Part shown: one piece after another, positions 2,167-43,656 of the stretch | Layout: the number at the start of each line of letters is the position of its first letter | How positions within the stretch are numbered: position 1 is the first letter of the stretch | Sequence record: PQ433351.1 | Strand: one strand, 5' to 3' | Origin: Escherichia phage vB_Ec-G9 | DNA length: 44,261 bases | The notes under the pieces: generated by a model | The model's database searches: none | Told to the model about the DNA's origin: nothing | What the model saw: only the letters and a program-made list of their open reading frames with translations | Position numbers and translations under genes: made by a program

Positions 2167-2182
2167 GTCTCACATGTGAGAC
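2167..2182. repeat. 16-bp perfect palindrome GTCTCACATGTGAGAC (copy 1 of 7)
   Basis: Exact palindrome in intergenic gap, flanked by extra symmetric bases (GCTTG...CAGGC). Confidence 0.9.
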
Positions 2183-2221
2183 AGGCTCTTATTAAGTACA
2201 TTAAATAACTGGAGATTGATT

Positions 2222-2905
2222 ATGTATAAATTAGTATTGAATGTAGGTGATTATGTTCGTAACATCAATGAAGCCTCACGTCGTTATCGTTGCCGTGGTG
2301 TAGTGGCTCGTGTAAGTGAGAACATGTATCATGTAGAATATGATGATGGTATTAAGGCTTCTTATCACAAGAAAACCGCACATAAATATCTTGAAAAGGT
2401 TGTAGAGGTAAACAATCAATGTAAGTGCATACATGATGAGGTTTGCGATAAATGTGCTCGCCAGATGCTTAAGAATTTCCTAGCTCCTCTTTATTATGGT
2501 GCTGGTCCTCAAACACTAGCAGAGTGCATGGCAGAAAAGAAAACCACACTCAAGAAAGAGCGTCGCAATGTAATCACTGGTAAGACTCAAAGTGAGATGA
2601 TTAAGCAATGTGGCACTGCATTAGGTGTTACACAGTTCAATACTCGTGCATTGGGTAAATCCACAGGGCAAGCTATGGTGAAGATTGGCGAAGCCATGAT
2701 GCATCCGAATATACCTGTACGAATCATGGATATAGACCATGCAATCACAGAACATGGGTCTTCACGCCGTGTTATTAACACCCATTTTGCCGACACTATA
2801 GAAGGTATTATTCGTAAGCAAGGTTTGAAGGGTCTTCACATCTTAAATGGTGAAGAATTACTGTACCTACCTATCGTTACTGAAGAGACATACGTGGATA
2901 TCTAA
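2222..2905 (+). CDS. hypothetical protein (228 aa)
   Basis: ORF with RBS GGAG 7 nt upstream of ATG 2222; Cys-rich segment CKCIHDEVCDKC; no recognisable family. Confidence 0.65.
   Translation: MYKLVLNVGDYVRNINEASRRYRCRGVVARVSENMYHVEYDDGIKASYHKKTAHKYLEKVVEVNNQCKCIHDEVCDKCARQMLKNFLAPLYYGAGPQTLAECMAEKKTTLKKERRNVITGKTQSEMIKQCGTALGVTQFNTRALGKSTGQAMVKIGEAMMHPNIPVRIMDIDHAITEHGSSRRVINTHFADTIEGIIRKQGLKGLHILNGEELLYLPIVTEETYVDI
2783..2805 (+). promoter_or_regulatory. degenerate phage-promoter-like sequence inside coding region
   Basis: CATTTTGCCGACACTATAGAAGG: core GACACTATAGAAG intact, -13 to -10 deviate from consensus; encodes ADTIEG in frame. Confidence 0.35.
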
Positions 2906-2915
2906 GGAGTTAATC

Positions 2916-3134
2916 ATGACTAAGGTATTAATTTACATGCGTGGACCTCATAAATGCTATGCAGTTGTAGCACCAAATGGTGTTAAGCCCTATAGTACTT
3001 CAAAAGGATTGGCATTAATAGGTGCTAGTAGTAGTGCAAGTTTCCAAATGGAACTTTTTGGTCATTGGAATGAAAGGCAATTCCGTGAGGATTTTAAAGT
3101 CATTGGCAGCTTCATAGTGAAATATGCAGAATAA
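2916..3134 (+). CDS. hypothetical protein (72 aa)
   Basis: Strong RBS AAGGAG upstream of ATG 2916. Confidence 0.55.
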   Translation: MTKVLIYMRGPHKCYAVVAPNGVKPYSTSKGLALIGASSSASFQMELFGHWNERQFREDFKVIGSFIVKYAE

Positions 3135-3300
3135 ACATAGTCTTAAAATGTTCGATGGTCATGAAGACCTGCAAGCCAAGATTACTAACCAAGCCTTCCT
3201 GTTTGCACAGTTAACTATGGCTGAAGCAAAGAAGAATAGCCTGACGCGTGAACAGGTTATCAAGGAAAGTGAAGTGAAACGTAAGATTCGCAGTCGATAA
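3124..3300 (+). CDS. hypothetical small protein (58 aa)
   Basis: ATG 3124 overlapping upstream stop; below ORF-track cutoff; weak RBS. Confidence 0.3.
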   Translation: MQNKHSLKMFDGHEDLQAKITNQAFLFAQLTMAEAKKNSLTREQVIKESEVKRKIRSR

Positions 3301-3310
3301 GTCAAGGGTT

Positions 3311-3326
3311 GTCTCACACGTGAGAC
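3311..3326. repeat. palindrome variant GTCTCACACGTGAGAC (copy 2)
   Basis: One central base differs from the perfect palindrome; intergenic. Confidence 0.8.
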
Positions 3327-3357
3327 AGCCTTTCATCATATTGATTGGAGGTGCATT

Positions 3358-3465
3358 ATGCCACGTGATTATGATTCTGATTGGGACTATTATGACTCAA
3401 TGAATCCAAAACCCGAACGTTCAGATGATTACTACGAAACAGAGGCAATGTATGAAGACTATTGA
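3358..3465 (+). CDS. very acidic Asp/Tyr-rich micro-protein (35 aa)
   Basis: RBS GGAGG upstream of ATG 3358; sequence MPRDYDSDWDYYDSMNPKPERSDDYYETEAMYEDY; overlaps DNA polymerase start. Confidence 0.3.
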   Translation: MPRDYDSDWDYYDSMNPKPERSDDYYETEAMYEDY

Positions 3466-5998
3466 TTGGAAGAAGGAGGCAGAAGGTCGTATCCTCGTGA
3501 TGGATGCGGAAGCTAAAGGACTCCTTGACGCTATCCGATATGGACACCGTGAAGATGTGCATATCATTTGCTGCATGGATTTGCTTACTACCGAGGAGTT
3601 TCTCTTCTTTGACCCGTATGAGATGCGTGACCCTGAAGCAAGAGAACGCCTGAAGGAATGGGAAGGTCATCAAGATGGAACCTTGGTTGACGGTGTTAAC
3701 TTCCTGAAGCATTGTGAAGCTATTGTGTCACAGAACTTCCTAGGGTATGACGGCCTTCTCTTTGAGAAGGCATTCCCTGATATTTGGAAAGGCTTTAACT
3801 ATACCGAGAAGCGCGGTAAGGGCAGACTCCGTGCTGACCTGTGTCCTATCCGTGTTGTAGATACGCTGGTGATGAGTCGTCTGCTAAACCCAGATAGACG
3901 CCTTCCTCCGCAAGCATATGCCAAAGGCATGGGTAACGTCGCCCCTCACTCAATTGAGGCGCACGGCATCCGTATAGGCCGCTATAAACCAGAGAACAAG
4001 GACTGGTCTAAACTAACTGACCACATGGTTCACCGTGTACGTGAAGACGTGGCAATTGGTCGTGACTTTTTCCTATGGCTTTACAACGGAGAGTGGACGG
4101 AGCACAAACGCCGTGGCGTGAACAAACGTACTGGCCTAGGGATTGAGACAGCCTTCCACATGGAGTCCATTGTGGCGCTGGAGATGAGCCGTCAGGCAGA
4201 GCGTGGATTCCGTCTGGATATTGACAAAGCACTAGCGCGATGCGAAGAACTGGACGCTAAGATTGATGAGACAGTCGCAGCGTTCCGCCCTCACATGCCT
4301 ATGCGTATCAAGTCTAAACCTTTTAAACCGGAAGAAAAGAATGAAGTATGCCAACGCGCAAATGAGTATGGAGCTAGCAACAATATACCTACTGTCCTTG
4401 ACCCCTCACACTTTCTTCATGCCGAGAGACGAGGAGATCGCAAGACAGTATGGAGTGTCACTACTAAGTCTGGTGATTGGTCGGCTAGTGTCAAGAAAGA
4501 CTTTCCTCACCTTAGAGGAAACCGTAATGACACGCCAAGCATCAAGTGGATTGGCGCTTACTCGCCTGTTACTTTCGAAGAGATTCCCTTGGGTAACAGG
4601 GATACAGTTAAGCAAGTGCTCTATGATTATGGATGGAAAGGTGTTGAATTTAACGATACCGAGCAAGCGCATCTCGATGAGCACGGAGTGTTACCCAAAC
4701 CTTGGAGTGGTAAGATAAATGAAAAGTCCCTTACTTTATGGCAAGAAAGAGCCGCACGTGAAGGTAAAACAGTCCCTGATTGGTGCTTGGGTATCGCTGC
4801 ATGGTACATACTCGTATCCCGTCGTGGTCAGATACTCAACCGTGGTGACGTTGAAGCCTTCAACGAGAAGGGAACGTGGCCCTCGCAGGCTGGTGTACGA
4901 AAGTGTCGCGGCCTTGTACCTGTAGCATTCAACAAGGAGCTAGGAATCAATGCGCAGCAATACTACGAGAGGTACGGATGTTGGCCTACGTCTGACAAAG
5001 ATGACGGAGAGTGGCGTGTTCCAGCTGTTGCTATTAGCATTGGCACTTCTACGTTCCGTATGCGTCATCGTAACGTGGTTAATATTCCTGCCCGTGGCTT
5101 GTATCCTTTACGTGATTTATTCATAGCAGGGAAAGGCAAGCTAATCCTTGGTTGTGACGGTGCAGGTCTTGAACTGCGTGTCCTGTCTCACTTCATGAAT
5201 GACCCTGAGTACCAAGAGATTGTACTGCACGGTGATATTCATACGCATAACCAGATGAAGGCTGGTCTTCCTAAGCGTGATATGGCGAAGACGTTTATAT
5301 ACGCCTTCCTCTATGGCTCTGGTATAGCCAACCTTGCAGCAGTATGTGGTGTTACTGAGGAAGAAATGAAGGAAGTTGTGGCAAGATTCGAGATTGAACT
5401 ACCATCTCTTGCACGTCTTCGTGAGAATGTTATCGCACAAGGTAACAAGTTTGGCTACCTGCAAGCACCTGATGGACATTGGGGTCGCATCCGCATGTCT
5501 GGTGGTGAACTTAAAGAGCACACGATGCTTAACGTATTACTCCAGATGACTGGCTCTTTGTGTATGAAATATGCATTAGTCAAGGCATTTGCAGTAATGC
5601 GCAAGGAAGGTGTAGCCTTGGATGCTATGGGAAATCCTTGTGGTGTGGCTAACGTGCATGATGAAATCCAGATGGAAGTTCCTGAAGAGGAGGTCTTGTA
5701 TCTTAACTACGACCTACCTTTCACCTTAGATGGGTTCGAAACAGAGAAGGTTGCCGTGAAAGCAGTGTTCGATGCAGAGGAGAAACGTGTTCATGTGGAT
5801 TCTGAAGGACGTATGTGGTCTGCTGCAAACCTAGTTAGTGTTGATGCTGATGCTGGTGTATTGCATTGCCAGCGCCGTTATCACCGTGCAGGTCATATCA
5901 TTGCCGACGCCATGACTTGGGCAGGGCAGTATCTGAAGATGCGTTGCCCGATGGCAGGCGAATATAAGATTGGCGCAAGTTGGAAGGAAACACACTGA
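3452..5998 (+). CDS. family A DNA polymerase with 3'-5' exonuclease domain (T7 gp5-like)
   Basis: Exo motif ILVMDAEA near N-terminus; pol motifs DGAGLELRV, KTFIYAFLYGSG, VHDEIQ; start placed at ATG 3452 (RBS GAGG) rather than ORF-track 3425. Confidence 0.9.
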   Translation: MKTIDWKKEAEGRILVMDAEAKGLLDAIRYGHREDVHIICCMDLLTTEEFLFFDPYEMRDPEARERLKEWEGHQDGTLVDGVNFLKHCEAIVSQNFLGYDGLLFEKAFPDIWKGFNYTEKRGKGRLRADLCPIRVVDTLVMSRLLNPDRRLPPQAYAKGMGNVAPHSIEAHGIRIGRYKPENKDWSKLTDHMVHRVREDVAIGRDFFLWLYNGEWTEHKRRGVNKRTGLGIETAFHMESIVALEMSRQAERGFRLDIDKALARCEELDAKIDETVAAFRPHMPMRIKSKPFKPEEKNEVCQRANEYGASNNIPTVLDPSHFLHAERRGDRKTVWSVTTKSGDWSASVKKDFPHLRGNRNDTPSIKWIGAYSPVTFEEIPLGNRDTVKQVLYDYGWKGVEFNDTEQAHLDEHGVLPKPWSGKINEKSLTLWQERAAREGKTVPDWCLGIAAWYILVSRRGQILNRGDVEAFNEKGTWPSQAGVRKCRGLVPVAFNKELGINAQQYYERYGCWPTSDKDDGEWRVPAVAISIGTSTFRMRHRNVVNIPARGLYPLRDLFIAGKGKLILGCDGAGLELRVLSHFMNDPEYQEIVLHGDIHTHNQMKAGLPKRDMAKTFIYAFLYGSGIANLAAVCGVTEEEMKEVVARFEIELPSLARLRENVIAQGNKFGYLQAPDGHWGRIRMSGGELKEHTMLNVLLQMTGSLCMKYALVKAFAVMRKEGVALDAMGNPCGVANVHDEIQMEVPEEEVLYLNYDLPFTLDGFETEKVAVKAVFDAEEKRVHVDSEGRMWSAANLVSVDADAGVLHCQRRYHRAGHIIADAMTWAGQYLKMRCPMAGEYKIGASWKETH

Positions 5999-6114
5999 TG
6001 GATAGGCTTGACATTGTTTACCTATTCTTCACTTTCTTTCTTACACTCCTTATGCTTGCTTGTTATGGGAGTATGAGACTAGATATACCTGATGAAGAAG
6101 AGGGTTACGACTAA
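5998..6114 (+). CDS. small membrane protein (38 aa)
   Basis: ATG overlaps DNAP stop (TGATG); hydrophobic core. Confidence 0.25.
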   Translation: MDRLDIVYLFFTFFLTLLMLACYGSMRLDIPDEEEGYD

Positions 6115-6212
6115 TGCAAACTGCTTTTATTATTCTTGGTATCGTATTATTTATGGTAGTACTCTGGGCCTTCTCTGGCATTGACCCGGATTGTGATGGT
6201 AACTACGACTGA
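6114..6212 (+). CDS. small membrane protein (32 aa)
   Basis: ATG overlaps previous stop (TAATG); hydrophobic. Confidence 0.25.
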   Translation: MQTAFIILGIVLFMVVLWAFSGIDPDCDGNYD

Positions 6213-6269
6213 GTTATACTCAAGGTCACTTACGAGTGGCCTTTATGAATAACTTAACTGGAGAGTATT

Positions 6270-7014: not shown

Positions 7015-7071
7015 ATAGGTCGGCTTAGTTCGGCCTATGATTGTGTAGTGTAACAATAGGAGACTAAATCA

Positions 7072-7875
7072 ATGGCACGTAATTTTGATTTTGGCGCAGA
7101 GGTCACTAAGTCAGAAGGTAAAGTATTTAAGAACCCAGAAGTGGGCGACCATGAAGCTGTAATCTCTGGAATCATTCATGTTGGTTCCTTCCAAGATATC
7201 TTTAAGAAAGGCAATACCACTGAAGTTAAGAAGCCAGCAAACTTTGTTCTTGTTAAGATTGTCCTGATGGGTGATGATGACAAGAACGAAGATGATTCAC
7301 GCATGGAACAGTGGATGGCTGTGCCTCTGAAGTCAGGTGATAAAGCTACTCTGACTAAGTTCCTGAATGCAGTTGATCCTAAAGAACTGCTGGGTGGCTT
7401 CGATGACTTCATCGGTGAATGCCTGACTGCAACTATGGTTGGCTCTGGCGACAAGAATGATGATGGTACTTTCAAGTATGTTAACTGGAAAGGCTTTGGC
7501 GGTATGCCTGATAAGTTGAAGAAGCTTGTACTGGCTCAGGTAGAAGAGGAAGGTCTGTCTATGACAGGTCATATCACCTTCGACAAGCTGACCAAAGAAA
7601 TCCTTGATGACATCCCAGCTAACTTGGTACGTCAATACTTCCTGAACGAGACACCTCGTGGTAAGAACCTGTCTGTTGCTGGCTCTCACGTAGAAGCTAT
7701 TATCAAAGCTGCTCGTGAAGAAGACCCAGAGTGGAAGAAAGCCAAGAAGAAAGATGACGAGGATGCTACTCCAGCTAATCGTAAGTCTCTGGATACTGGC
7801 GAGTCTGTTCCACAGGAAGTACCTGAAGCAGAAGATACTCCTGCACCGGAGATGGATGAGGACGCGGAATATTAA
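7072..7875 (+). CDS. abundant protein with acidic C-terminal tail; candidate ssDNA-binding protein (267 aa)
   Basis: RBS AGGAG; highly biased (expression-type) codon usage; C-terminus EMDEDAEY; position and tail resemble T7 gp2.5 logic; sequence similarity not established. Confidence 0.6.
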   Translation: MARNFDFGAEVTKSEGKVFKNPEVGDHEAVISGIIHVGSFQDIFKKGNTTEVKKPANFVLVKIVLMGDDDKNEDDSRMEQWMAVPLKSGDKATLTKFLNAVDPKELLGGFDDFIGECLTATMVGSGDKNDDGTFKYVNWKGFGGMPDKLKKLVLAQVEEEGLSMTGHITFDKLTKEILDDIPANLVRQYFLNETPRGKNLSVAGSHVEAIIKAAREEDPEWKKAKKKDDEDATPANRKSLDTGESVPQEVPEAEDTPAPEMDEDAEY

Positions 7876-8104: not shown

Positions 8105-8120
8105 GTCTCACATGTGAGAC
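8105..8120. repeat. 16-bp perfect palindrome GTCTCACATGTGAGAC (copy 3)
   Basis: Exact; lies 15 bp upstream of promoter at 8136. Confidence 0.9.
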
Positions 8121-8135
8121 AAATCGGTGTCCGGT

Positions 8136-8159
8136 ATTTACTGGACACTATAGAAGAGA
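8136..8159 (+). promoter_or_regulatory. phage RNAP promoter
   Basis: TATTTACTGGACACTATAGAAGAG. Confidence 0.8.
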
Positions 8160-8207: not shown

Positions 8208-8585
8208 ATGTTCAAGATTGAAACTATCGTAAACCGTGTTGTTAAAGGTGCTGCTCTGGTATCCGTTGAGTCTTTCATTATCGTCGATGAAGCTGATCAA
8301 CTGGTAGCTGGTACTAAGGCTTACGATACCCGTGAAGAAGCTCAGGCTAAGATTGACAGCATGGGTAACTTCGCTGCTGGTCTGGAGTTCGCTCGCGCTT
8401 GCTTCCCTGAGCAGGCTGACAAAGCTCAGATTGGTAAGGCTAATATCGTAGCTGAATATCTGGATTGGATTGCTGCTGGTAAGCCGGTGAAAGAAGTTAA
8501 GTCTGCTGAAGAAGCTGAAGCTCAGGCGGCAGAAGAAGTAGCTGCACCGGTAGATGCTCCGGTAAGCGAAGAAGAAGAGTTTTAA
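8208..8585 (+). CDS. highly expressed small protein with acidic C-terminal tail ending EEEEF (125 aa)
   Basis: Strong RBS AAAGGAGA; codon usage like capsid gene; followed directly by terminator; function unknown. Confidence 0.7.
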   Translation: MFKIETIVNRVVKGAALVSVESFIIVDEADQLVAGTKAYDTREEAQAKIDSMGNFAAGLEFARACFPEQADKAQIGKANIVAEYLDWIAAGKPVKEVKSAEEAEAQAAEEVAAPVDAPVSEEEEF

Positions 8586-8955: not shown

Positions 8956-9896
8956 TAGATGCTGATATGTTACCTTACATCGTCGGGTATACAATCAGTG
9001 ACATGACTTATGTACGAGCTACAACTCGTGTTAAGTCAGGACAAGTCCCATCAATCAAAGATACCCCTGAGTGTAAGCAAGCGTGTGACCGTGTGAACTC
9101 CTTGCTTAACTCTTGGGTGTATGCAGCAGAGTGTGATGCTGCTAAGTTATTCATGACGAAATCAGAAGCTAACTTCCGTGTCCGCCTAGCATTCACCAAG
9201 CCTTACAAGGGTCAACGTAAGACCGAGAAGCCTCCATTCTTCTATGAATTGCGAGAGCATCTCTTAGAGGTTCATGGTGCAATCTTGGCAGATGGAGAAG
9301 AGGCTGATGACCTCATGAGCATTGCACAATGGGACAGCCACCGCCGCTTCCAGCAAGATACAGGTAACGAGTTCCCTATCGGTAGTCCAGAGCATAAAGC
9401 ATTCTCTGATACTTGCATCGTTTCCTTAGATAAGGATTTGATGATTGTTCCCGGTTGGCATCTTCAGCCGGGTCAAGAGAAGAAATGGGTAGAGCCTATG
9501 GGTTGGCTTGAGTTACGCCGTAAGGCTAATGGTCAGGTTAAAGACCTTAAAGGTGCTGGCCTCATGTTTCATTATGCACAGATGATTATCGGTGATGATA
9601 TTGATAACTATGCTGGCATACCTGGACGTGGTGCTAGATACGCCTATGATCTTCTCAAAGATTGTAAGACAGAGAAAGAGTTGTACATGGCAGTGCTTGG
9701 TGCTTACAAGGCTAAGTTCGGACATGGACAAGTTAAGATTAAGAATTACCGAGGGGGTTATCGTATCGGCAAGGCTTTTGACCTGATGCTCGAATGTGGT
9801 CGCCTAGCTCACATGGCAAGATTCAAAGGTGATATATGGCGAGCCGATAAGAACCCAATCTTGTGGGGAGATGATGCGGAATGGTTAGCAAATTAA
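8868..9896 (+). CDS. 5'-3' exonuclease (T7 gp6-like, FEN family)
   Basis: N-terminal IALIDADML and YKGQRK, EEADD motifs parallel T7 gp6 ILVMDGDWL / YKANRK / EGDD; start at ATG 8868 (RBS GAGGAG). Confidence 0.8.
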   Translation: MRPNFDFGATVSEDNNLILWPTEGNRIALIDADMLPYIVGYTISDMTYVRATTRVKSGQVPSIKDTPECKQACDRVNSLLNSWVYAAECDAAKLFMTKSEANFRVRLAFTKPYKGQRKTEKPPFFYELREHLLEVHGAILADGEEADDLMSIAQWDSHRRFQQDTGNEFPIGSPEHKAFSDTCIVSLDKDLMIVPGWHLQPGQEKKWVEPMGWLELRRKANGQVKDLKGAGLMFHYAQMIIGDDIDNYAGIPGRGARYAYDLLKDCKTEKELYMAVLGAYKAKFGHGQVKIKNYRGGYRIGKAFDLMLECGRLAHMARFKGDIWRADKNPILWGDDAEWLAN

Positions 9897-21948: not shown

Positions 21949-24896
21949 TGGCAATTGAGCGACAAGCAGTACAAGGTCTGCCACAAGTGCAGGCCACTTC
22001 TCCTAATGTCATGACCTTTGCACCTCAGCGAGTTGGAGGTGTAGAGGCTGGCGTAGCTTCTACCTCCGGTAGTCGATTTATCGAAGATCTTATTCGAGCA
22101 GCCAGCAGTGTAGCTGATGTTACCACTGGTATCCTTAATCAGAAGATTGAGGAAGATAAGGTTGTTCAAATGGAACGGGCATATAACGGATTAATGCCTT
22201 CTGAGGATGCAACTCGTGGTGGCGCTCGTGCTAACATGCTTGTCAAAGCTCAACTGCTAGCTAATGATGAAGCAGCACGAATGAAAGACATGGCTACTCG
22301 TTTCCAAGGAACGGATGATGAGTGGACACAACTTATGGTTGACTCTCGTAATGAGATGCAGAATAAGCTGTTCCAGCAATACCCTGAGTTGCAAGGTGAC
22401 AAAGATACTATGCGTATGATCACTAATGTCTTCCAAGAACAGCAGCCTCAGATTTGGGCTACACGAACCCAGCATAAACTTGACCGTGAACAAGCAGACC
22501 GTGAGGATACCTTTGACGGGCGAGTGGCTTCTACTTGGGATTCTAATATTGACCCTGAAGCCTCTGGCTATGCTTTACAGGAACGAATCCGCGAAGGTCT
22601 TACTCAAGGATTACTACCTGAACAGATGTACAAGAAGTTAGTCCAGCGAGCAATTTCACTTGCACAAGGCGGTGATGTTAGCATGGCTGAAGCCCTGAAG
22701 TATGTGAAGGACGATAAGGGTGTTTCTGTTTATGCTAAGAATCCACAGCTTATCACAGCCATCACTAGTGGTAACGCAGTTTGGGCTAGGAATAATGTAG
22801 CTGATGTAACTCGTATGTCTTTCGAAGTTAAAGAATCCTACCTTGCAGGTGATTTAACTGATGAAGAATTGTTGGAACGAGCACAGCACATTAATAATCT
22901 GACAGGTAACTCTGTCTTCTCTAATCCAGAACTAGAGGCACTGATGCGCCAACGGGCTAAGCAGAATGCAGAGCTAGGTGCAATGCAGGATATGCGACGT
23001 GAGCTTTACTCCGACCGCCTGACTGGCTTCCAAGGTAAGACTGATAAAGAGAAGAAGGCTTACATTGATGTTATCAAACAAGATAGCCAACTTTATGCAG
23101 ACCAGCAAATCAAACAACGTGGCTTGGACCCTTACAGTCAAGAGGCTGAAGCTATTCGTGGTGCAGTGGAAGTGCAGCGCCTGCAATTCATGAACTCCAA
23201 AGGCTTAGTGGATGATACCTTTGAGTCTCGTATCAAAGCCATGGAATCTATGCTATCGCCTGAGCACTTTGCCAAGGGCGAACCACAGGAGTTGATGACT
23301 ATTCGCCAGTTGTGGGAACAGTTGCCAGAAGAGAGCCGAGGTGTCTTTGGTGACACGGTGAATGGCTACATGGATAACTACAACACTGCACTACAAATGG
23401 GAGAGACACCTTTGCAGGCTGCAAGGTTTGCGCGTGAAGCACAGCAGAAATTCTCTCGTACTGAGAAGGAAACCAAGAAGTTCAACTCAGCTATTGGAGA
23501 TGCACTGGATGAGGTATCTGGTGCTGGCTGGTTCGATGGTAAAACCGAAGTGTCAGACTTAGGTAAAGCTATTGCAGAAGAGGAGTTACGAGCTAAGGCT
23601 AATATGCTGTGGTCTAGTGGTATGCGTAACATGGATTCCATCAAGAAGGCTTTAATTACTTGGGGCAATAAACGCTACACTCAATCAGAGGATGCAAAGA
23701 CTTCCGGTGGCTATTTCATTAAAGGTGATTACACTTCTGCATCTGATATGCTTATGTCAGTTGGGAAAGGCGTAAACCCTACCGATGTACCTCTGGCGCT
23801 TGGTAGGTATGTAGAAACACAGATGCCAGAATTGAAGAAGGAACTTCAAGAGTGGGAAACTAAAGATGATATATACATTGATTACAATGAACAGAAAGGT
23901 ACTTTCGTGATTCGTGCTGGTGCAGCAGGTCGCCCTCTTTCTGGAGTAATCCCTGTAACCTCTTTAGATACCACTTCACTACTAGATTCTGCCTATCAGA
24001 AGAAAGTCGAGGAACGAGATAAAGGCGAGTATGTTCACCCTTATCGTACAGATATTGGTGCACAAGAGCCTATGCCAGCTAAACCAACTGCCAAAGATAT
24101 TGGTAAATTTGGACTAGCTAACTTCCTCATGTCTTCTGCTTTTGCTTCTGGTGAGAATCTGCCTTCTAACTTCGAGATTAACTATCGAGGTAATATGCAA
24201 CAATTCTATGACAAGCTAGCTATGGCTGAGAATAAAGATAAAGTTGGCTTTAATAAGGCAACTGGAACCTTTACTCCATATAAAGACGCTCACGGTGAGT
24301 CTATCGGTTACGGTCATTTCTTAACGGAAGAAGAGAAGCGAAACGGGTATATTAAGATTGGCGATGAACTAGTTCCCTATCGAGGGTCTATGTCTCAGCT
24401 TACAGAGAGCAAGGCTCGCGCTCTTATGGAGCAAGATGCTAAGAAGCATGTGCCTCCTACTCGTGACTGGAAGATTCCGTTTGACCAGATGCATCCTGCA
24501 CAGCAACGTGGCTTGATGGATTTAACCTACAATTTAGGTAAAGGTGGAATCCAGAACTCACCGCGTGCTCTTGCTGCATTCAAAGCTGGTAAGCTTACGG
24601 AAGGCTTTATCGAAATGCTGGGCACTGCATCAAGTGAAGGTAAGCGTATTCCTGGCCTACTGAAGCGACGCGCTGAGGCATACAATATGGCATCTGCTGG
24701 TGGTGTGCCTAAGATTACCGAAGTGGAGACTCGTGAAGATGGCTCCATGTGGGTTAGGTTTGGTGGACCTATGCCAGCAGGTTCTGTCTCGGCATGGACT
24801 CATAAACGTATTGGCGCGGATGGTTGGTATCAGGTTTATGAGGCTGCACCTACCAAGTTAGCTAAAGATTCTAAGGTAGGTAAAGTTAAGTTGTAG
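21948..24896 (+). CDS. internal virion protein B with C-terminal lysozyme-like (GH24) domain
   Basis: C-terminal PYKDAHGESIGYGHFLT and GLMDLTYNLG resemble T4 lysozyme YKDTEGYYTIGIGHLLT region. Confidence 0.8.
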   Translation: MAIERQAVQGLPQVQATSPNVMTFAPQRVGGVEAGVASTSGSRFIEDLIRAASSVADVTTGILNQKIEEDKVVQMERAYNGLMPSEDATRGGARANMLVKAQLLANDEAARMKDMATRFQGTDDEWTQLMVDSRNEMQNKLFQQYPELQGDKDTMRMITNVFQEQQPQIWATRTQHKLDREQADREDTFDGRVASTWDSNIDPEASGYALQERIREGLTQGLLPEQMYKKLVQRAISLAQGGDVSMAEALKYVKDDKGVSVYAKNPQLITAITSGNAVWARNNVADVTRMSFEVKESYLAGDLTDEELLERAQHINNLTGNSVFSNPELEALMRQRAKQNAELGAMQDMRRELYSDRLTGFQGKTDKEKKAYIDVIKQDSQLYADQQIKQRGLDPYSQEAEAIRGAVEVQRLQFMNSKGLVDDTFESRIKAMESMLSPEHFAKGEPQELMTIRQLWEQLPEESRGVFGDTVNGYMDNYNTALQMGETPLQAARFAREAQQKFSRTEKETKKFNSAIGDALDEVSGAGWFDGKTEVSDLGKAIAEEELRAKANMLWSSGMRNMDSIKKALITWGNKRYTQSEDAKTSGGYFIKGDYTSASDMLMSVGKGVNPTDVPLALGRYVETQMPELKKELQEWETKDDIYIDYNEQKGTFVIRAGAAGRPLSGVIPVTSLDTTSLLDSAYQKKVEERDKGEYVHPYRTDIGAQEPMPAKPTAKDIGKFGLANFLMSSAFASGENLPSNFEINYRGNMQQFYDKLAMAENKDKVGFNKATGTFTPYKDAHGESIGYGHFLTEEEKRNGYIKIGDELVPYRGSMSQLTESKARALMEQDAKKHVPPTRDWKIPFDQMHPAQQRGLMDLTYNLGKGGIQNSPRALAAFKAGKLTEGFIEMLGTASSEGKRIPGLLKRRAEAYNMASAGGVPKITEVETREDGSMWVRFGGPMPAGSVSAWTHKRIGADGWYQVYEAAPTKLAKDSKVGKVKL

Positions 24897-24913
24897 TACC
24901 TAACTCAAGGCTT

Positions 24914-24929
24914 GTCTCACATGTGAGAC
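24914..24929. repeat. 16-bp perfect palindrome GTCTCACATGTGAGAC (copy 4)
   Basis: Exact; flanks GCTTG...CAGGT; between the two large internal virion protein genes. Confidence 0.9.
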
Positions 24930-24960
24930 AGGTCTTTATGATAGGCACTATGGAGGATTT

Positions 24961-35199: not shown

Positions 35200-35254
35200 A
35201 CGCAACTTTTCTTAAAGGTTATCATGGTGGTAGCCTTTCAGAAAAGGAGGTTAC

Positions 35255-36967
35255 ATGCTTCAAAGATTAAGTGCTTACTTGGTGAAGTACAAGAGTAAAC
35301 TAACAGGTACTATTGAGCGCCTGCTATCTGATAAACTATCGGATACAATAGATGTTGCGGATTTTGGAGTTAATCCATCCTCTAATGACAACAGGCAAGC
35401 CCTTCAAGCTGCATTCAATGCGGTCAGACTGCTAGGCGGTGGTACTGTAGCAGTCACTAAAGCTGGCGAATATAAACTCAGTGGTACTGTTGAGATATTT
35501 GCTAATACACACTTCAAGGTTGCTAAAGGTGTAACATTTGTACGTGACTACGAAACAGGAGATACTCTATTCAGATTATCACAAGGGCAAGCTAGTAATG
35601 TAACAGTCAGTGGAGGTATCTATGAAGGCAATGGTCACACTAAGGGAGATACACCTTTTGTAGTATTTGCATCTACTAGTAATAATGATTTGAAGTTTGA
35701 AGGCATAACAGTTAACAATGTAGTGGACTACCACGCCATAGATTTAGCAGATTGGAACAACGTAGTTATTCGTGATTGTAAATTCCTAGGGTTTAAGAAT
35801 ACAGGCAGTCGTAACTTCTCAGAGGCTATACAGTTAGACCCAGGACTTATTACAGTAGGTCGCTATGTGCAGTCTAGTGGTTTACTGGTAGAGAATTGCT
35901 ATGCTGGCCCAAACCTTGATTCTGGATTTGGCGGGTATGGTGCTCTAGTAGGGAATCATGCATCAGCTTATGGTGTTCAAGATAACAACATTAGAATCCT
36001 AAATTGCACTACAGATGGTGCGCTCTTTGCAGGTGTACGTGTATTTAACTGGAAAAACTGGACAGTACGTGGTTGCACCTTTAGAAACTCTAATGCAAGA
36101 GGTGTTCATGTTACACCTGTCTCCTCTCAAACTAAACCGCAAGGAACTCGACAAGGTAGTGTTGTAGATTGTACTTTTGATGGCGTAAGAACACCAGTGC
36201 TAATTGCTGCACCATCTTGGCCTTTTACCGATATTAGTGACATTTGGCATGACCATATTGAAATTTCTAATAATATTATGATCCTCACAGAGGATGTATC
36301 CTATGGTGTAGATGCAAGGTGGTGTAAGAATTTAATTGTAAAAGGTAATACAGGCTCTGGTGGCTTAGGGTTAATCGGTTTACGCTTTGGGACAAAGTAC
36401 CACATCGAAGGTAATACTTGGGAAAACGGAAGAGGTAGTGGGATTTGGTTAAGTGAGTCTGATGCTACTACATTCATTGGTACTGGTTTATCAGGAGAAG
36501 GTATACTTAGTCGTAATATCTTCTCTAAATTAGGGCAACATGGTATTCATGTAAACTGCAAGGTTGGCGGTCTAGTGATTAAGGCTAATAATATGAAGGA
36601 AGTATCTACAGCTGAAGCAGGTAGGCACTTCATTAGCATAGACACAGGAGCTAACAACATCCTAGTAGAGGGTAATATTGGAGTAGATGGAGAAAGCCCT
36701 AACAAGCCAAGCCTTGGTATTAGTGTTACTTCTTCTTGCTCCAATATTAAACTAATTGGCAATGATTGCTATGGTACGCAAGCACCTCAGGATAACCAAG
36801 GAGTCGGTTCTAGTACGGTGATTGTTTATGGACTAAATGGCAATCCTACAACTTTAGGCGTAGGTGCACCTGTAGGCTCTTTAGCAACTAATATCAATGG
36901 GTCTGGTGGTAGTGCATTGTACGTTAAAAAATCTGGTACTTCTGCTAAAGGCTGGGTTGCAAAGTAG
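35255..36967 (+). CDS. tailspike 2, right-handed beta-helix (pectate-lyase-like depolymerase fold)
   Basis: Strong RBS AAAGGAGG; repeated NxxV / GNxG beta-helix-like motifs; no chaperone domain. Confidence 0.75.
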   Translation: MLQRLSAYLVKYKSKLTGTIERLLSDKLSDTIDVADFGVNPSSNDNRQALQAAFNAVRLLGGGTVAVTKAGEYKLSGTVEIFANTHFKVAKGVTFVRDYETGDTLFRLSQGQASNVTVSGGIYEGNGHTKGDTPFVVFASTSNNDLKFEGITVNNVVDYHAIDLADWNNVVIRDCKFLGFKNTGSRNFSEAIQLDPGLITVGRYVQSSGLLVENCYAGPNLDSGFGGYGALVGNHASAYGVQDNNIRILNCTTDGALFAGVRVFNWKNWTVRGCTFRNSNARGVHVTPVSSQTKPQGTRQGSVVDCTFDGVRTPVLIAAPSWPFTDISDIWHDHIEISNNIMILTEDVSYGVDARWCKNLIVKGNTGSGGLGLIGLRFGTKYHIEGNTWENGRGSGIWLSESDATTFIGTGLSGEGILSRNIFSKLGQHGIHVNCKVGGLVIKANNMKEVSTAEAGRHFISIDTGANNILVEGNIGVDGESPNKPSLGISVTSSCSNIKLIGNDCYGTQAPQDNQGVGSSTVIVYGLNGNPTTLGVGAPVGSLATNINGSGGSALYVKKSGTSAKGWVAK

Positions 36968-37154: not shown

Positions 37155-37616
37155 ATGGAAGTTTGGAGGCCTATTGCTGGTATACCAGATTACATGGTTT
37201 CCTCCTTTGGTCGTGTTAGATCTCATAAAAGAGGTAAGGTTACTATACTAAACCCTCCGCACGACAAAGGAGGTTATCGTAATGTTGTGCTACGTGTTAA
37301 TGGTGAAAAGATAAATCGCAAGGTACATAGGCTTGTGGCAGAGGCTTTCTTACCTAACCCTCACGGTTTACCTCAAGTAAATCACAAGGATGAAGTAAGA
37401 GACAATAATCATGTAAGTAATCTGGAGTGGTGTGATTGTGCATACAACGTAGATTACTCTCAAGCAGCTACTTATACTGTGATGTGCCCTAAAGGTAATA
37501 TCTTAGTAGTAAGGAATGTGGCTAAGTTTTGTAGGGAAAACGGATTAAGCAGTGGTTCTTTTACAGATATGCTTAAGGGAAGACGTAAGCAACATAAGGG
37601 TTATCGCTTAGTGTAA
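37155..37616 (+). CDS. HNH homing endonuclease (NUMOD4 + HNH)
   Basis: WRPIAGIPDYMVSSFGRV (NUMOD4-like) and VNHKDEVRDNNHVSNLEW (HNH). Confidence 0.8.
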   Translation: MEVWRPIAGIPDYMVSSFGRVRSHKRGKVTILNPPHDKGGYRNVVLRVNGEKINRKVHRLVAEAFLPNPHGLPQVNHKDEVRDNNHVSNLEWCDCAYNVDYSQAATYTVMCPKGNILVVRNVAKFCRENGLSSGSFTDMLKGRRKQHKGYRLV

Positions 37617-38238: not shown

Positions 38239-38254
38239 GTCTCACATGTTAGAC
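38239..38254. repeat. palindrome variant GTCTCACATGTTAGAC (copy 5)
   Basis: One half-site base changed. Confidence 0.75.
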
Positions 38255-38288: not shown

Positions 38289-38317
38289 TTGACAAGATAA
38301 TCTTAGTGTAATACTAT
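38289..38317 (+). promoter_or_regulatory. host sigma70-type early promoter candidate
   Basis: TTGACA - 17 bp - TACTAT. Confidence 0.55.
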
Positions 38318-38864: not shown

Positions 38865-38872
38865 ATTAACTG

Positions 38873-39158: not shown

Positions 39159-39253
39159 TTTGGAAGGTAGCTTCTTAGTCGGGATAGGTTAGACCTAGGG
39201 CATTCTTTGAGTGCCCTATAATGTAACCTAACTAACTAATGAGGATTAATAAC

Positions 39254-39610
39254 ATGGCTATGTCTAATATGACTTACTCTCAGGTTTACAACACCGCTCA
39301 CGCTGCATTAGTTGAACGTATCTGGGATGATGCTATTGATTGTATCGATAACGCACATGATGCAATCCATGAGGTGGCGGATAGTGCTGTACCAATCTAT
39401 TATGCTGACATCTTCTCAGTGATGGCCAGTGAAGGCATCGACCACTTCTTCGAGGATTCTGGCTTAATGCCAGACACTAAGGATGTGACGGTCGTACTAC
39501 AAGCCCGTATTTATGAACAACTCACCATTGATTTATGGGAACGTGTTCAAGATATGATTGATGCGTACATCGACTCAGCCGAAGATTTAGAAGAAGAAGA
39601 GGAAGAATAA
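39254..39610 (+). CDS. ocr: Ocr-like DNA-mimic anti-restriction protein (T7 gene 0.3 homologue)
   Basis: MAMSNMTY... [18 protein letters not shown]...[13 protein letters not shown]...[15 protein letters not shown] closely matches T7 Ocr as recalled; acidic EEEEEE C-terminus; RBS GAGGA. Confidence 0.85.
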
Positions 39611-39612
39611 AG

Positions 39613-39726
39613 ATGGAAAAGCAATATAACTTTATCTTTTCTGATGGTGTAACCTTGAAATGCTCCTTACGATTCGCCCAGATTCGCGAGGAAGTGCTAG
39701 GTACTACATATAAACTATTTATCTGA
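39613..39726 (+). CDS. early hypothetical small protein (37 aa)
   Basis: ATG 3 nt after ocr stop; below ORF-track cutoff. Confidence 0.3.
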   Translation: MEKQYNFIFSDGVTLKCSLRFAQIREEVLGTTYKLFI

Positions 39727-39740
39727 CACTATAAGAGAGG
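39716..39740 (+). promoter_or_regulatory. phage-promoter-like variant (ACTATAAGAG)
   Basis: TATTTATCTGACACTATAAGAGAGG: upstream half matches, +1 region differs. Confidence 0.35.
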
Positions 39741-39805
39741 ATTTAACAGGGCGTTACTTGTTAGCGCCCGATTAAGTTTATCTCAATAAACCAAATAGGT
39801 GACTT

Positions 39806-40690
39806 ATGACTACTGAAAACACCCTCCTGTCTGTTCGTGAAGCTGCAACCGCTGAGATCAAGCAACACTTAGACAATATCGGCACTTCTTACATCAAAGT
39901 TGGCGCTTGTCTTAATGAGTTACGCGGTGACTTTGAAGGTCAAAAAGACTTTTTGGCTTATGTAGAATCAGAATTTGGAATCAAGAAAGCACAATGTTAC
40001 AAGCTGATGAGTGTAGCCCGTGTCTTTGAAGGCGATGATCGCTTTAAAGGCGTGGCGATGCGTGTAATGCTGGCACTTGTTCCTTTCGCTGATGAAAATA
40101 TCATCATGGAGAAAGCCGCAGAACTTGCCGCAGCGGGCAAGCTGGACACTAACGCCGTGAACGCCCTGATTGAGCCTAAGAAAGAGCCAAAGTCTGAGAC
40201 GGTACAATCCAAGGCTGAGCCTGTAAAACCGAAGGAGAACGCGACTGCGGCCGCAGAATTACAGGAAACGCAAGCGCCGCAGGAAGTGCCGCCAGCAAGT
40301 GAGTCGGATGACGACAAATCAGCACCGTGGGAAGAGGAAAGCAAGCCGGAAGCGCCAAAGGCCGCGCCACTGGACAACACGGCTAACACTGAAAACGCCG
40401 CTATGGCTGGCCTACTGGCACAAATTAAGGCACTGACTGAGCAATTACAGGCAGCTAACGACCGCATCGCCGCCCTAACCAGTGCACGTGAAAGCAAGAA
40501 GGCAGCCGCGCCTATGCTTCCCCAATTCAAATCTAAATGTCTCTATGCTCGCTTGGGTTTAAGCGCTGAGGAGGCAACGAAGAAAACAGCAGTTAACAAG
40601 GCACGCCGCGAACTGGTTAAGCTAGGCTATGGTGAAGGCCATGAAGCATGGGCCTTAATCTCTGAGGCAGTAGAAGAATTAACTAAGTAA
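39806..40690 (+). CDS. early protein with low-complexity Pro/Glu/Lys/Ala-rich central linker (294 aa)
   Basis: ORF immediately upstream of RNAP gene (position of T7 gene 0.7); noticeably GC-richer codon usage; no kinase motifs seen. Confidence 0.6.
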   Translation: MTTENTLLSVREAATAEIKQHLDNIGTSYIKVGACLNELRGDFEGQKDFLAYVESEFGIKKAQCYKLMSVARVFEGDDRFKGVAMRVMLALVPFADENIIMEKAAELAAAGKLDTNAVNALIEPKKEPKSETVQSKAEPVKPKENATAAAELQETQAPQEVPPASESDDDKSAPWEEESKPEAPKAAPLDNTANTENAAMAGLLAQIKALTEQLQAANDRIAALTSARESKKAAAPMLPQFKSKCLYARLGLSAEEATKKTAVNKARRELVKLGYGEGHEAWALISEAVEELTK

Positions 40691-40753
40691 CCTTATCGGT
40701 GGCATCTTCTTAGGTGTCACCTATTAAGGTTTCTTTCACTAGGAGTAAACAAG

Positions 40754-43381
40754 ATGCAAGACTTACACGCTATTCAACTTCAACTTGAAGAAGAAATGTT
40801 TAACGGCGGTATCCGTCGCTTTGAAGCGGACCAACAGCGCCAGATTGCATCCGGTAATGAATCAGACACGGCATGGAATCGCCGCTTATTGTCCGAGTTA
40901 ATTGCGCCAATGGCTGAAGGTATTCAGGCATACAAGGAAGAGTATGAAGGTAAAAGAGGCCGTGCACCGCGTGCATTAGCTTTCATTAACTGCGTAGAAA
41001 ATGAAGTGGCAGCGTATATCACGATGAAAATCGTTATGGATATGCTGAACACGGATGTAACCTTGCAGGCTATAGCCATGAATGTAGCTGACCGCATTGA
41101 GGACCAAGTACGTTTTAGCAAGCTGGAAGGTCACGCCGCCAAATACTTTGAGAAAGTTAAGAAGTCACTTAAGGCAAGTAAGACTAAATCATATCGCCAT
41201 GCGCACAACGTAGCGGTCGTGGCTGAGAAGTCAGTAGCTGACCGTGACGCTGATTTCTCTCGCTGGGAGGCGTGGCCTAAAGATACCTTGCTACAAATCG
41301 GTATGACCTTGCTAGAAATACTGGAAAATAGTGTATTCTTCAATGGTCAGCCTGTCTTTCTTCGCACCTTGCGCACTAATGGTGGCAAGCATGGCGTTTA
41401 CTACTTACAGACTAGCGAACACGTAGGTGAATGGATAACTGCATTTAAAGAGCACGTAGCTCAGCTGAGTCCAGCCTATGCACCTTGCGTTATTCCTCCG
41501 CGTCCGTGGGTTTCTCCGTTTAATGGTGGCTTTCACACCGAGAAGGTGGCGAGTCGTATTCGTCTGGTTAAAGGAAACCGCGAGCACGTCCGCAAGCTGA
41601 CCAAAAAGCAAATGCCAGCGGTTTACAAGGCTGTTAACGCTTTGCAGGCGACTAAGTGGCAGGTTAATAAAGAGGTTTTGCAGGTAGTAGAGGACGTTAT
41701 CCGTCTCGACCTTGGTTATGGTGTGCCTTCCTTTAAACCACTCATCGACCGTGAGAACAAGCCAGCTAATCCAGTGCCGTTAGAGTTCCAGCACCTGCGA
41801 GGCCGTGAACTTAAAGAGATGCTAACGCCAGAACAGTGGCAAGCTTTTATAAACTGGAAAGGAGAATGTACCAAGCTGTATACCGCTGAAACTAAGCGCG
41901 GAAGCAAGTCGGCGGCGACCGTTCGCATGGTAGGACAAGCGCGCAAGTACAGCCAGTTCGACGCGATTTATTTCGTGTATGCACTGGATAGCCGTTCACG
42001 CGTTTATGCGCAATCTAGCACGCTCTCTCCGCAATCAAACGACTTAGGCAAGGCATTGCTCCGTTTTACCGAAGGGCAGCGTCTTGATAGCGCTGAGGCG
42101 CTTAAGTGGTTTTTGGTGAACGGGGCGAATAACTGGGGTTGGGATAAGAAAACTTTTGACGTGCGCACCGCTAACGTGCTGGATAGCGAATTTCAAGACA
42201 TGTGCCGCGACATTGCAGCCGACCCGCTGACCTTCACTCAATGGGTAAATGCTGATTCCCCTTACGGCTTCCTTGCATGGTGCTTTGAATATGCGCGTTA
42301 TCTGGATGCACTGGATGAAGGCACGCAAGACCAATTCATGACGCACCTACCCGTCCATCAAGACGGTAGTTGCTCTGGTATCCAGCACTATAGCGCGATG
42401 TTACGCGATGAAGTAGGTGCGAAAGCAGTAAACCTTAAGCCTTCTGACTCCCCTCAAGATATTTATGGCGCGGTTGCGCAGGTTGTTATCCAGAAGAATT
42501 ACGCCTACATGAATGCAGATGATGCAGAGACTTTCACATCTGGAAGCGTCACACTTACAGGTGCAGAACTGCGTAGCATGGCTAGTGCGTGGGATATGAT
42601 AGGAATCACTCGCGGCCTGACCAAAAAGCCCGTAATGACACTACCTTATGGCAGCACACGTCTAACCTGCCGTGAATCAGTGATTGATTATATCGTTGAT
42701 TTGGAAGAAAAAGAGGCCCAACGAGCTATTGCCGAAGGGCGGACGGCGAATCCCGTGCACCCTTTTGATAATGACCGCAAAGACTACCTTACACCTGGTG
42801 CAGCCTACAACTATATGACGGCTTTAATTTGGCCTTCTATCTCTGAGGTTGTTAAAGCTCCTATAGTGGCGATGAAGATGATTCGCCAGCTTGCACGTTT
42901 CGCAGCTAAAAGGAATGAAGGGTTAGAATACACCTTGCCAACTGGCTTCATCTTGCAACAAAAGATAATGGCTACCGATATGCTCCGTGTATCCACTTGC
43001 TTGATGGGTGAAATCAAGATGAGTCTACAGATTGAAACTGATGTAGTGGATGAAACGGCAATGATGGGCGCTGCCGCTCCTAACTTTGTTCACGGGCACG
43101 ATGCTAGTCACCTTATATTAACGGTATGTGACCTTGTTGATAAAGGGATTACATCTATCGCAGTAATTCATGATTCTTTTGGCACTCATGCAGGCCGTAC
43201 AGCCGATCTACGCAACAGCTTAAGGGCAGAAATGGTGAAGATGTATCAAGGCCGTAATGCACTGCAAAGCCTGCTAGATGAGCACGAAGAACGCTGGTTA
43301 GTTGATACAGGAATCCAAGTACCAGAGCAAGGAGAGTTTGACCTTAACGAAATCTTAGTATCTGACTATTGCTTCGCATAA
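40754..43381 (+). CDS. single-subunit DNA-dependent RNA polymerase (T7/SP6 type)
   Basis: [39 protein letters not shown] and C-terminal SDYCFA match T7 RNAP catalytic and C-terminal motifs; 875 aa. Confidence 0.95.
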
Positions 43382-43389
43382 TATTAATA

Positions 43390-43420
43390 GGCCATTCCTT
43401 CGGGAGTGGCCTTTCTTTTA
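43390..43420 (+). terminator. strong intrinsic terminator with UUCG tetraloop after RNAP gene
   Basis: GGCCATTCC-TTCG-GGAGTGGCC (9-bp stem, one G.U) followed by TTTCTTTT. Confidence 0.8.
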
Positions 43421-43454
43421 CCTACTACCTGTAACATTTCATTAACATAAACGT

Positions 43455-43470
43455 GTCTAACATGTGAGAC
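43455..43470. repeat. palindrome variant GTCTAACATGTGAGAC (copy 6)
   Basis: Mirror-image variant of copy 5; abuts promoter at 43471. Confidence 0.75.
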
Positions 43471-43495
43471 TTATTTACCGGACACTATAGGATAG
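43471..43495 (+). promoter_or_regulatory. phage RNAP promoter
   Basis: TTATTTACCGGACACTATAGGATAG. Confidence 0.7.
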
Positions 43496-43499
43496 CCGT

Positions 43500-43630
43500 C
43501 GGAGACGGGAAAGAAAGGGAAGATAAAAGGATATAAAAGGAAGTAATAGGTATTAAAGGTTATATATAGGTTTACCTAGGAATACCTATTACCTTCTTCC
43601 TTCCTCTTATTACTACTTAGAGGAAGGGCA
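43500..43630. other. AT-rich imperfect long inverted repeat; candidate replication origin or structured leader
   Basis: Purine-rich arm GGGAAAGAAAGGGAAGATAAAAGGA and pyrimidine-rich arm CCTTCTTCCTTCCTCTT around TATATAGGTTTACCTAGG; sits between two tandem phage promoters just downstream of the RNAP gene. Confidence 0.4.
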
Positions 43631-43640
43631 GATCTAGGTT

Positions 43641-43656
43641 GTCTCACATGTGAGAC
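43641..43656. repeat. 16-bp perfect palindrome GTCTCACATGTGAGAC (copy 7)
   Basis: Exact; 4 bp upstream of promoter at 43661. Confidence 0.9.

Follow-up and report, generated by a model that had tools for sequence, protein, structure and literature searches.

A dispersed 16-bp palindrome in the SP6-like phage vB_Ec-G9, a candidate operator of the early protein gp6

The stretch analysed here, called the window throughout, is the 44,261-bp circularly permuted genome of Escherichia phage vB_Ec-G9 (PQ433351.1), a Vectrevirus of the K1-5, K1E and VEc3 group (Autographiviridae, Molineuxvirinae) that shares 93-97% identity with many E. coli phages. All of its genes are oriented rightward. SP6 RNA polymerase and capsule depolymerases come from the classic phages SP6, K1-5 and K1E; to our knowledge, regulation of these phages has been assumed to be T7-like, with an RNA polymerase (RNAP) switch and RNase III and without a sequence-specific DNA-binding regulator. 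Dispersed in the window is a family of copies of a 16-bp palindrome, GTCTCACATGTGAGAC, which, judging from co-variation between protein and site and from a predicted fold, is probably the operator of gp6, an early protein encoded by the phage and listed in databases as hypothetical or of unknown function.

The exact 16-mer is found at 2167, 8105, 24914 and 43641, and copies with one mismatch at 3311 (CACG centre), 38239 (G12T) and 43455 (C5A), just as described in an earlier note made on this DNA. The seven copies counted there are real, and an eighth, GTCTCACGTGTTAGAC with two mismatches at 599-614, completes the family; it lies within the primase/helicase open reading frame, and the statement that all copies are intergenic has to be dropped. 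No exact match occurred in any of 100 shuffles, and eight copies with at most three mismatches were observed against 0.23 expected. Copy 599 is read in frame as TCT CAC GTG TTA GAC (S-H-V-L-D), and its G12T change abolishes the in-frame TGA that a perfect palindrome would introduce. In SP6, PP1, UAB_Phi78 (UAB78) and Klebsiella phages the orthologous copies have the arms proper to those phages and encode S-N-V-L-D. Rfam gave no family match anywhere in the window.

Folding of each copy with 32 nt on either side separates two classes. Copies 2167, 3311 and 24914 (class A) have complementary flanks, including G.U pairs, and form, on the transcribed strand, a lower stem, an asymmetric internal loop and an upper stem of at least about 10 bp (-27 to -32 kcal/mol); the extra symmetric flanks reported in the earlier note are real at these three. 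T7 RNase III sites (R0.3, R0.5, R1, R1.1, R1.3, R4.7, R18.5 etc.) share this stem-loop-stem build, with common flanks ACUCAAGGUC...GGCCUUUAU^GAU. The window was also searched, with filters off, using a covariance model (CM) trained on only seven T7 sites, whose coordinates, presumably those of Dunn and Studier (1983), were checked against the fold and the CCUUUAU^GAU context. All three class A hairpins combine the bipartite fold with detection by this model, which treats the palindrome in each as a 7-nt apical insertion. Copy 24914 reads ACUCAAGGCU[UGUCUCACAUGUGAGACA]GGUCUUUAUGAU, and its internal-loop flanks, ACUCAAGG...CUUUAUGAU, are identical to those of T7 R0.5, R1.1 and R18.5; orthologues of this hairpin in SP6, Premi and PP1 score 40-45 bits. 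The orthologue of 2142-2210 in Proteus phage Premi is annotated as a terminator. Like the T7 sites, class A hairpins are intergenic and precede a ribosome-binding site. Fold and model together support the assignment of the three copies to T7-type RNase III signals, with cleavage predicted.

The window hairpins differ from T7 sites in an upper stem that is about 3 bp longer and includes the constant 16-mer, a module that T7 upper stems lack. Because the window also contains T7-type sites without the palindrome, among them 6204 and 39180, the palindrome is a separable module that the RNase III signal itself does not include. Conversely, the five remaining copies (class B: 599, 8105, 38239, 43455 and 43641) have no RNase III context; they lack complementary flanks, form a stem of 6 bp only and give no CM match, so that the RNase III-type hairpin offered in the earlier note as one candidate holds for three copies and fails for five. 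T7-type RNase III sites do exist in the SP6-like group, and a small covariance model suffices to annotate them.

Copies 38239, 43455 and 43641 fold only weakly in their local context, at -7 to -13 kcal/mol per 80 nt. The family does not qualify as intrinsic terminators, which have a G+C-rich hairpin with an immediate U-run, and only 43641 passes a permissive scan; AAAUC follows copy 8105 and AACCU follows copy 38239, neither being a U-run. Twelve phage-type promoters matching ATTTACYGGACACTATAG were found in the window. Three of them follow copies 8105, 43455 and 43641, as had been noted, at gaps of 15, 2 and 5 nt in place of the 4-15 bp first given. Flanks of the core-only copies are mutually unrelated and each copy is conserved at an orthologous position, which rules out recent duplication of flanking sequence as the origin of the family.

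Table 1. Palindrome copies, hairpins, promoters and relevant genes in the window.
Feature	Position	Strand	Remarks
Core copy GTCTCACGTGTTAGAC, within primase/helicase gene	599..614	.	
Core-only copy	8105..8120	.	15 nt 5' of phage promoter 8136-8153; position conserved in 11 genomes, with lineage-specific arms
Core-only copy (G12T), near genome left end	38239..38254	.	34 nt 5' of the -35 of early promoter 38289-38317
Core-only copy (C5A)	43455..43470	.	Between terminator 43389-43412 and promoter 43473-43490 (gap 2 nt)
Core-only copy	43641..43656	.	5 nt 5' of promoter 43662-43679
T7-type RNase III-like bipartite hairpin, 3' of primase gene	2142..2210	+	16-mer 2167-2182 at apex; -31.7 kcal/mol; CM 19.1 bits, E 0.06
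T7-type RNase III-like bipartite hairpin, 5' of DNA polymerase gene	3286..3354	+	16-mer variant 3311-3326 (CACG centre) at apex; -29.0 kcal/mol; CM 23.0 bits, E 0.006
T7-type RNase III-like hairpin, between two large internal-virion-protein genes	24889..24957	+	16-mer 24914-24929 at apex; -27.2 kcal/mol; CM 30.9 bits, E 6e-5
T7-type RNase III site without palindrome	6204..6264	+	CM 47.0 bits, E 4e-9
T7-type RNase III-like hairpin without palindrome	35200-35258		CM 18.6 bits
Probable RNase III site without palindrome, directly 5' of ocr gene	39180..39237	+	Position as T7 R0.3; CM 25.9 bits, E 0.001
T7-type RNase III-like hairpin without palindrome, 5' of RNAP gene	40680-40742		Position as T7 R1; CM 17.9 bits
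First strong sigma-70-type early promoter	38289-38317		TTGACA-17-TACTAT
Phage promoter, gene 18	8136-8153		
First phage promoter after RNAP gene	43473-43490		
Second phage promoter after RNAP gene	43662-43679		
Terminator 3' of RNAP gene	43389-43412		Hairpin distinct from any palindrome copy
Primase/helicase gene	72..1988	+	
DNA polymerase gene	3425..5998	+	
Gene 6 (gp6, 294 aa), candidate palindrome-binding protein	39806..40690	+	Predicted KorB/ParB-type helix-turn-helix
RNA polymerase gene	40754..43381	+	
HNH endonuclease gene with NUMOD4 and I-HmuI-like domains	37155-37616		Absent from K1-5
HNH endonuclease gene	43707-44123		Absent from K1-5

The search of related phages proposed in the earlier note found copies kept at orthologous positions in K1-5, K1E, VEc3, SP6, UAB_Phi78, two Klebsiella phages, Premi, PP1, phiEa100 and phi-A318. 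The last of these, a Vibrio phage, belongs to another subfamily, and conservation thus spans Molineuxvirinae and Colwellvirinae. Relatives carry 6-11 copies, compared with eight in the window. All copies of a genome have one arm sequence in common, and lineages switch arms in concert: arms are GTCTCAC in Vectrevirus, the Erwinia phage, the Vibrio phage and several uncultured lineages, GTCCAAC in Klebsiella, Proteus and Pectobacterium phages, and mostly GTCTAAC...GTTGGAC in SP6 and UAB_Phi78. Most lineages have a 2-nt centre, phi-A318 has one of 3 nt, and in Premi five of six sites have 3 nt and one has 2 nt. At one position in the RNAP gene the peptides VSHVLD (phiEa100), VSNVLD (PP1, UAB78, SP6) and VSRCETE (phi-A318, with a 17-nt motif) each encode the local motif variant; the motif at that position has been lost in Vectrevirus. 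Since the peptide changes with the motif variant, selection acts on nucleotides even within genes. Exact copies in unrelated uncultured Autographiviridae lie immediately upstream of the terminator behind the capsid gene, 1-3 nt before a Shine-Dalgarno sequence, or within genes in other reading frames.

In K1-5 (L002), the site at 9570-9585, 5' of the DNA polymerase gene, is GTCCAACGTGTTGGAC, with the arm type of another lineage, and the downstream gene is SP6-like, which points to recombination that brought a foreign operator into the RNase III hairpin. In phiEa100 (L044), two palindrome copies 35 bp apart occupy 7068-7118 with a truncated promoter-like sequence (ATTAACCACCCAG joined to GAA) between them; it looks as if a copy has replaced the initiation region of a promoter.

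The gp6 protein is one of those that all lineages with the motif encode and that T7, itself without the motif, lacks. An AlphaFold2 model built from a 45-sequence alignment is confident for an N-domain of residues 30-125 (predicted local distance difference test, pLDDT, above 90). Its helix-turn-helix (HTH) comprises helix 46-57, the turn G58-I59-K60 and helix 61-74, which bears Q63 and K66; a single long helix precedes it. A disordered acidic linker (131-191), a long helix (193-232) and a confident J-like C-domain follow. The model has the fold of the ParB/KorB DNA-binding domain, and KorB structures, among them the DNA-binding domain in complex with operator DNA, give the best superposition of the N-domain. 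A Foldseek search with the model returned no significant match, four of its 25 weak matches being KorB, ParB or VirB, and in Pfam no sequence homology of gp6 to KorB/ParB families is detectable. Pfam and PHROGs gave no nucleic-acid-binding match for 20 uncharacterised window proteins, and phmmer against the PDB found nothing for gp6, gp16, gp17 and gp18; among the 20 proteins screened and the four compared with solved structures, gp6, the only one modelled, is the only one with a candidate DNA-binding motif. The C-domain was considered as a J-domain co-chaperone and set aside, as the HPD tripeptide is absent (…KLGYGEGHEAW…, window 40520-40690). The APMLPQF motif that precedes this J-like domain is nearly invariant across the family.

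Arm sequence tracks two residues of the putative recognition helix. In an alignment of twelve gp6 orthologues, the residue after a conserved Tyr (position 66; gp6 contains DFLAYVESEFGIKKAQCYKLMSVARVF) partitions by arm type, being K in six of six GTCTCAC lineages and N in GTCYAAC lineages, except for H in SP6. Overall identity is 67-73% between Vectrevirus gp6 and the N/H proteins and only 31-47% between it and the other K proteins. The set was extended by 36 loci encoding gp6 relatives, helix and arms being called independently. K66 pairs with GTCTCAC arms in 20 genomes or loci drawn from four deep lineages, and N66 with GTCCAAC arms in 19, both without exception; H66 is found with the hybrid arms of SP6, and R66 (with Q63) with GT(C/T)CCAC. 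Residue Q63 always accompanies AC at arm positions 6-7, and W, Y or H at this position accompanies other arms. In total, residues 63 and 66 track the arms in about 50 genomes or loci, with no exceptions within the K and N classes. Pairing of K or R with G, and of N or Q with A, fits the usual amino-acid-to-base preferences.

Further gp6 homologues were then picked by helix sequence alone; six additional helix variants in all come with arms of their own. Their combinations are Q63/R66 with GT(C/T)CCAC in L163, whose nearest relative phi-A318 has Q/K and GTCTCAC; Y63/R66 with GTCTACA (10-11 copies) in L156; W63/R66 with GTCTAGT in L154, L157 and L159 and with GTGTACT in L161; W63/K66 with GTCTCGT in L162, GTCTAGC in L164 and GTCTCTT in L165; and H63/R66 with GTAACAC in L160. 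As a prospective test, five of six homologues chosen by helix gave new arms in the expected neighbourhoods.

The sites, their conservation, the RNase III-type build of three of them, the modelled gp6 fold and the co-variation stand as observations; from the last two we infer physical binding by gp6. The protein would act as a dimer whose KorB/ParB-type HTH engages both 7-bp arms of the duplex, with K66 reading base pairs 4-5 and Q63 base pairs 6-7. One site would then lie 5' of the first host-type early promoter, the driver of the operon that contains the gp6 and RNAP genes, three directly 5' of phage promoters and one within the primase gene; at the remaining three, on tips of RNase III hairpins, the DNA palindrome would merely lengthen the upper stem of the RNA. 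As the likeliest consequence, gp6 bound near promoters would control or insulate transcription at several sites at once, as KorB does, and would feed back on the early operon; alternatively, gp6 might have a role at a replication origin region between 43455 and 43641. We conclude that an HTH protein reads the core in duplex form; inside the RNase III hairpins RNA pairing matters additionally, and extrusion of the DNA as a hairpin may also play a role. Among the candidates first listed in the earlier note, an operator for a dimeric regulator is the one best supported for the 16-mer core, whose arms co-vary with the gp6 recognition helix.

Several observations weigh against this assignment and are given here together with the controls. 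The role of gp6 is argued from co-variation and a predicted fold, and switches that are truly independent are few, roughly six to eight. In a control on 7,314 ungapped alignment columns from 20 proteins present in all 11 reference genomes, 23 columns partition perfectly by motif type, so that gp6-66 is not unique among these genomes; the 23 include gp6 K66, gp6 E102, RNAP K301, nine columns in gp36 and three in an acetyltransferase. In the extended set RNAP-301 and gp6-102 fail, L135 and L142 having RNAP K301 yet GTCCAAC arms, and gp6-66 holds throughout. H63/R66 had been predicted with GTCTCAC, and L160 (P0218) instead has a two-copy GTAACAC palindrome. A centre of 2-3 nt, mixed in Premi, sits uneasily with a rigid dimer on duplex DNA; a hairpin would accommodate it more readily. 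Asymmetric sites of SP6, UAB78, L163 and L165 are mostly T.G on the coding strand, which hints at an added hairpin constraint. In a census of mismatches, 114 of 184 distinct sites are perfect, and single-mismatch sites comprise 30 with T.G/G.T, 16 with C.A/A.C and 24 with neither; left-end and intragenic copies are often anti-wobble, and window variants break mid-stem. The 30:16:24 count weakens a general RNA-only constraint. A possible link of another kind, between gp6 and the parA-adjacent protein of an unrelated viral contig (L028), was not retained: BLASTP gave E 7e-4 and HHalign a probability of 3.7%, and the similarity is unproven and possibly a coincidence.

A purely RNA-level element, in which the copies serve as RNase III sites, 3'-end stabilisers or weak terminators and keep their identity by gene conversion or common descent without a dedicated binder, appears unlikely. 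The three genuine T7-type hairpins speak for it, as do the terminator annotation of Proteus orthologues, the terminator-like call at 43641 in a simple scan, a centre that varies in length and sequence as a loop would, the coding-strand T.G asymmetry in several lineages, and cores of uncultured relatives that abut a post-capsid terminator or Shine-Dalgarno sequences. Yet core-only copies, with their short stems and weak folds, do not match the RNase III model, and 38239, 43455 and 599 are conserved although C.U or A.G mismatches interrupt their stems midway. Early promoters lie downstream of the left-end copy, wobble orientation is biased only 30:16 with 24 non-wobble mismatches besides, and 16 bp is short for gene conversion across 40 kb. 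Such an element would also leave the tracking of gp6 residues 63 and 66 by the arms unexplained. Recognition by another trans-acting factor (phage RNAP, for which the site would signal a pause or termination, some other phage protein, or one from the host), with gp6 co-varying by linkage, is improbable. Columns in RNAP (K301/Q), gp36 and the acetyltransferase partition equally well in the 11 reference genomes and sites adjoin promoters and terminators, but RNAP-301, the sole RNAP column to do so, fails in the extended set, and the RNAP pause site suggested earlier has no support; no nucleic-acid-binding fold is predicted for gp36 or the acetyltransferase, and a candidate DNA-binding motif was seen only in gp6 among the proteins screened.

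Motif type is independent of host genus, Erwinia and E. coli phages having one type and Salmonella, Klebsiella, Proteus and Pectobacterium phages the other, and host representative genomes contain no copies. A scan of one bacterial genome per species (596 Gb) gave 75 exact matches, at or below the ~139 expected by chance, with none in Escherichia or Salmonella representatives; a host operator or a family similar to repetitive extragenic palindromes (REP) was rejected on these counts. Primase recognition (GTC) and the T7 class II pause signal (ATCTGTT) were dropped for want of a specific match. We regard as very improbable a mobile or selfish origin, either as a miniature palindromic element or as target or footprint of the nearby HNH homing endonucleases. 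HNH genes do adjoin some copies (43707-44123 in the window; gp01, gp12 and gp18 in phiEa100), one phiEa100 copy interrupts a promoter-like sequence, and the same 16-mer forms repeat families in unrelated genomes. Against this, copies occupy the same orthologous positions across two subfamilies, K1-5 and K1E keep their sites without an HNH gene, and intragenic copies arise by codon substitution and not by insertion, and the homing-endonuclease target put forward earlier is not supported; no presence/absence polymorphism linked to an endonuclease gene or to insertion footprints was found. With only 65,536 perfect 16-bp palindromes possible, chance sharing between unrelated families is expected, and we regard as coincidences the families in L028 (a 129-kb viral contig of 68% G+C), a Patescibacteria metagenome-assembled genome (MAG) and an FCPU426 MAG; the loci besides L028 are L123 and contigs of MAG JAHISE01. 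In L028 (964-3019) the 16-mer lies at the tips of long hairpins that flank a parA gene and an open reading frame with an HTH-like motif.

KorB, a global repressor with a ParB-family HTH, and its OB operators on the IncP plasmid RK2 offer the closest comparison for the gp6 operator. RK2 KorB operators are short perfect palindromes, about 8-12 per replicon, at variable distances from promoters and in some cases intragenic. Window sites are likewise short palindromes in several copies, at variable distance from promoters and with one in a gene, and it is on KorB that the gp6 model superposes best. The systems differ in that gp6 lacks the ParB N-terminal domain and homology detectable by Pfam, has a C-terminal J-like domain, and has no ParA/IncC partner or KorA in the window; its replicon is a virulent phage of the T7 supergroup that needs no partition, and gp6 binding and repression are predictions. 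ParB-parS and SopB-sopC share with gp6 the ParB-type HTH fold, as modelled. The parS site is a 16-bp palindrome whose half-site TGTTTCAC resembles TGTCTCAC, and in the plasmid-prophage N15 centromere repeats are dispersed along the phage genome, as the window palindromes are. Unlike these systems, gp6 has no ParA or CTPase domain and the spacing of the window half-sites differs by 2 bp from that of parS. A ParABS partition system was excluded, as Pfam found no ParA or ParB-N (CTPase) family in the 20 uncharacterised window proteins, gp6 included; no ParA is annotated in related genomes. If gp6 reads the core, as we hold somewhat likelier than the contrary, core and protein would work in the manner of KorB/OB or of dispersed ParB sites, by analogy and not as a member of either family.

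The searchable literature, which does not reach the original SP6 and K1-5 genome papers, gave no description of the motif or of a gp6 function and nothing relevant on the 16-mer and its variants, DUF3102 or ParB/KorB-like proteins in these phages, in agreement with the earlier note, to which the element was unfamiliar. The nearest report concerns the T7-like vibriophage VIB04, in which dispersed similar palindromes, some of them RNase III sites and some not, trigger the DdmABC (Lamassu) defence and are suspected by the authors to be essential to the phage (Robins et al. 2024, PMC11707656). VIB04 is from a different phage subfamily, and that report deals with recognition by host defence, leaving aside what the palindromes do for the phage, and proposes no binding protein. 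As such palindromes are known Lamassu/DdmABC triggers (PMC11707656), the family has relevance for phage therapy.

More tentatively, and with somewhat less than even confidence, these data can be read as a plasmid-style operator network in virulent SP6-like phages. An early KorB/ParB-like protein with a J-like domain would act on 6-11 palindromes, placed at the early promoter, at the first phage promoters near the likely origin and inside replication and transcription genes, where it would set the timing of the early-to-middle switch or activate the origin, perhaps recruiting Hsp70 to DNA like SV40 large T antigen. If true, this would be a regulatory layer foreign to the T7 paradigm, and genomes would reveal its specificity code, in which residues 63 and 66 correspond to base pairs 4-7. 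Assignment of the palindrome to gp6 gives a conserved hypothetical early protein a testable function and a candidate function to a cis element shared by dozens of phages with sequenced genomes. Eight or more natural helix/operator pairs can be tested by swaps of one or two residues and may supply orthogonal DNA-binding parts.

Additional features were observed around the copies near promoters. An inverted repeat, GGTGTCCGG...CTGGACAC, at 8126-8150 covers -12 to -3 of promoter 8136; in SP6, Premi, PP1 and phi-A318 the upstream arm changes together with the promoter. The repeat could represent an incomplete RNAP-binding site in opposite orientation, or else form a hairpin in RNA. Between the two promoters that follow the RNAP gene, with a palindrome copy on each side, a long purine-rich/pyrimidine-rich inverted repeat (…aaaggaagtaataggaatacctattaccttcttcc…) extends over 43490-43640, a position that matches the T7 primary replication origin (phi1.1A/B). 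Both HNH genes listed in Table 1 are probably homing-endonuclease insertions. Acidic tails ending in an aromatic residue, as in T7 gp2.5, are found in gp16 (7072-7875, …DEDAEY) and gp18 (8208-8585, …SEEEEF), and gp16 is probably a single-stranded-DNA-binding protein.

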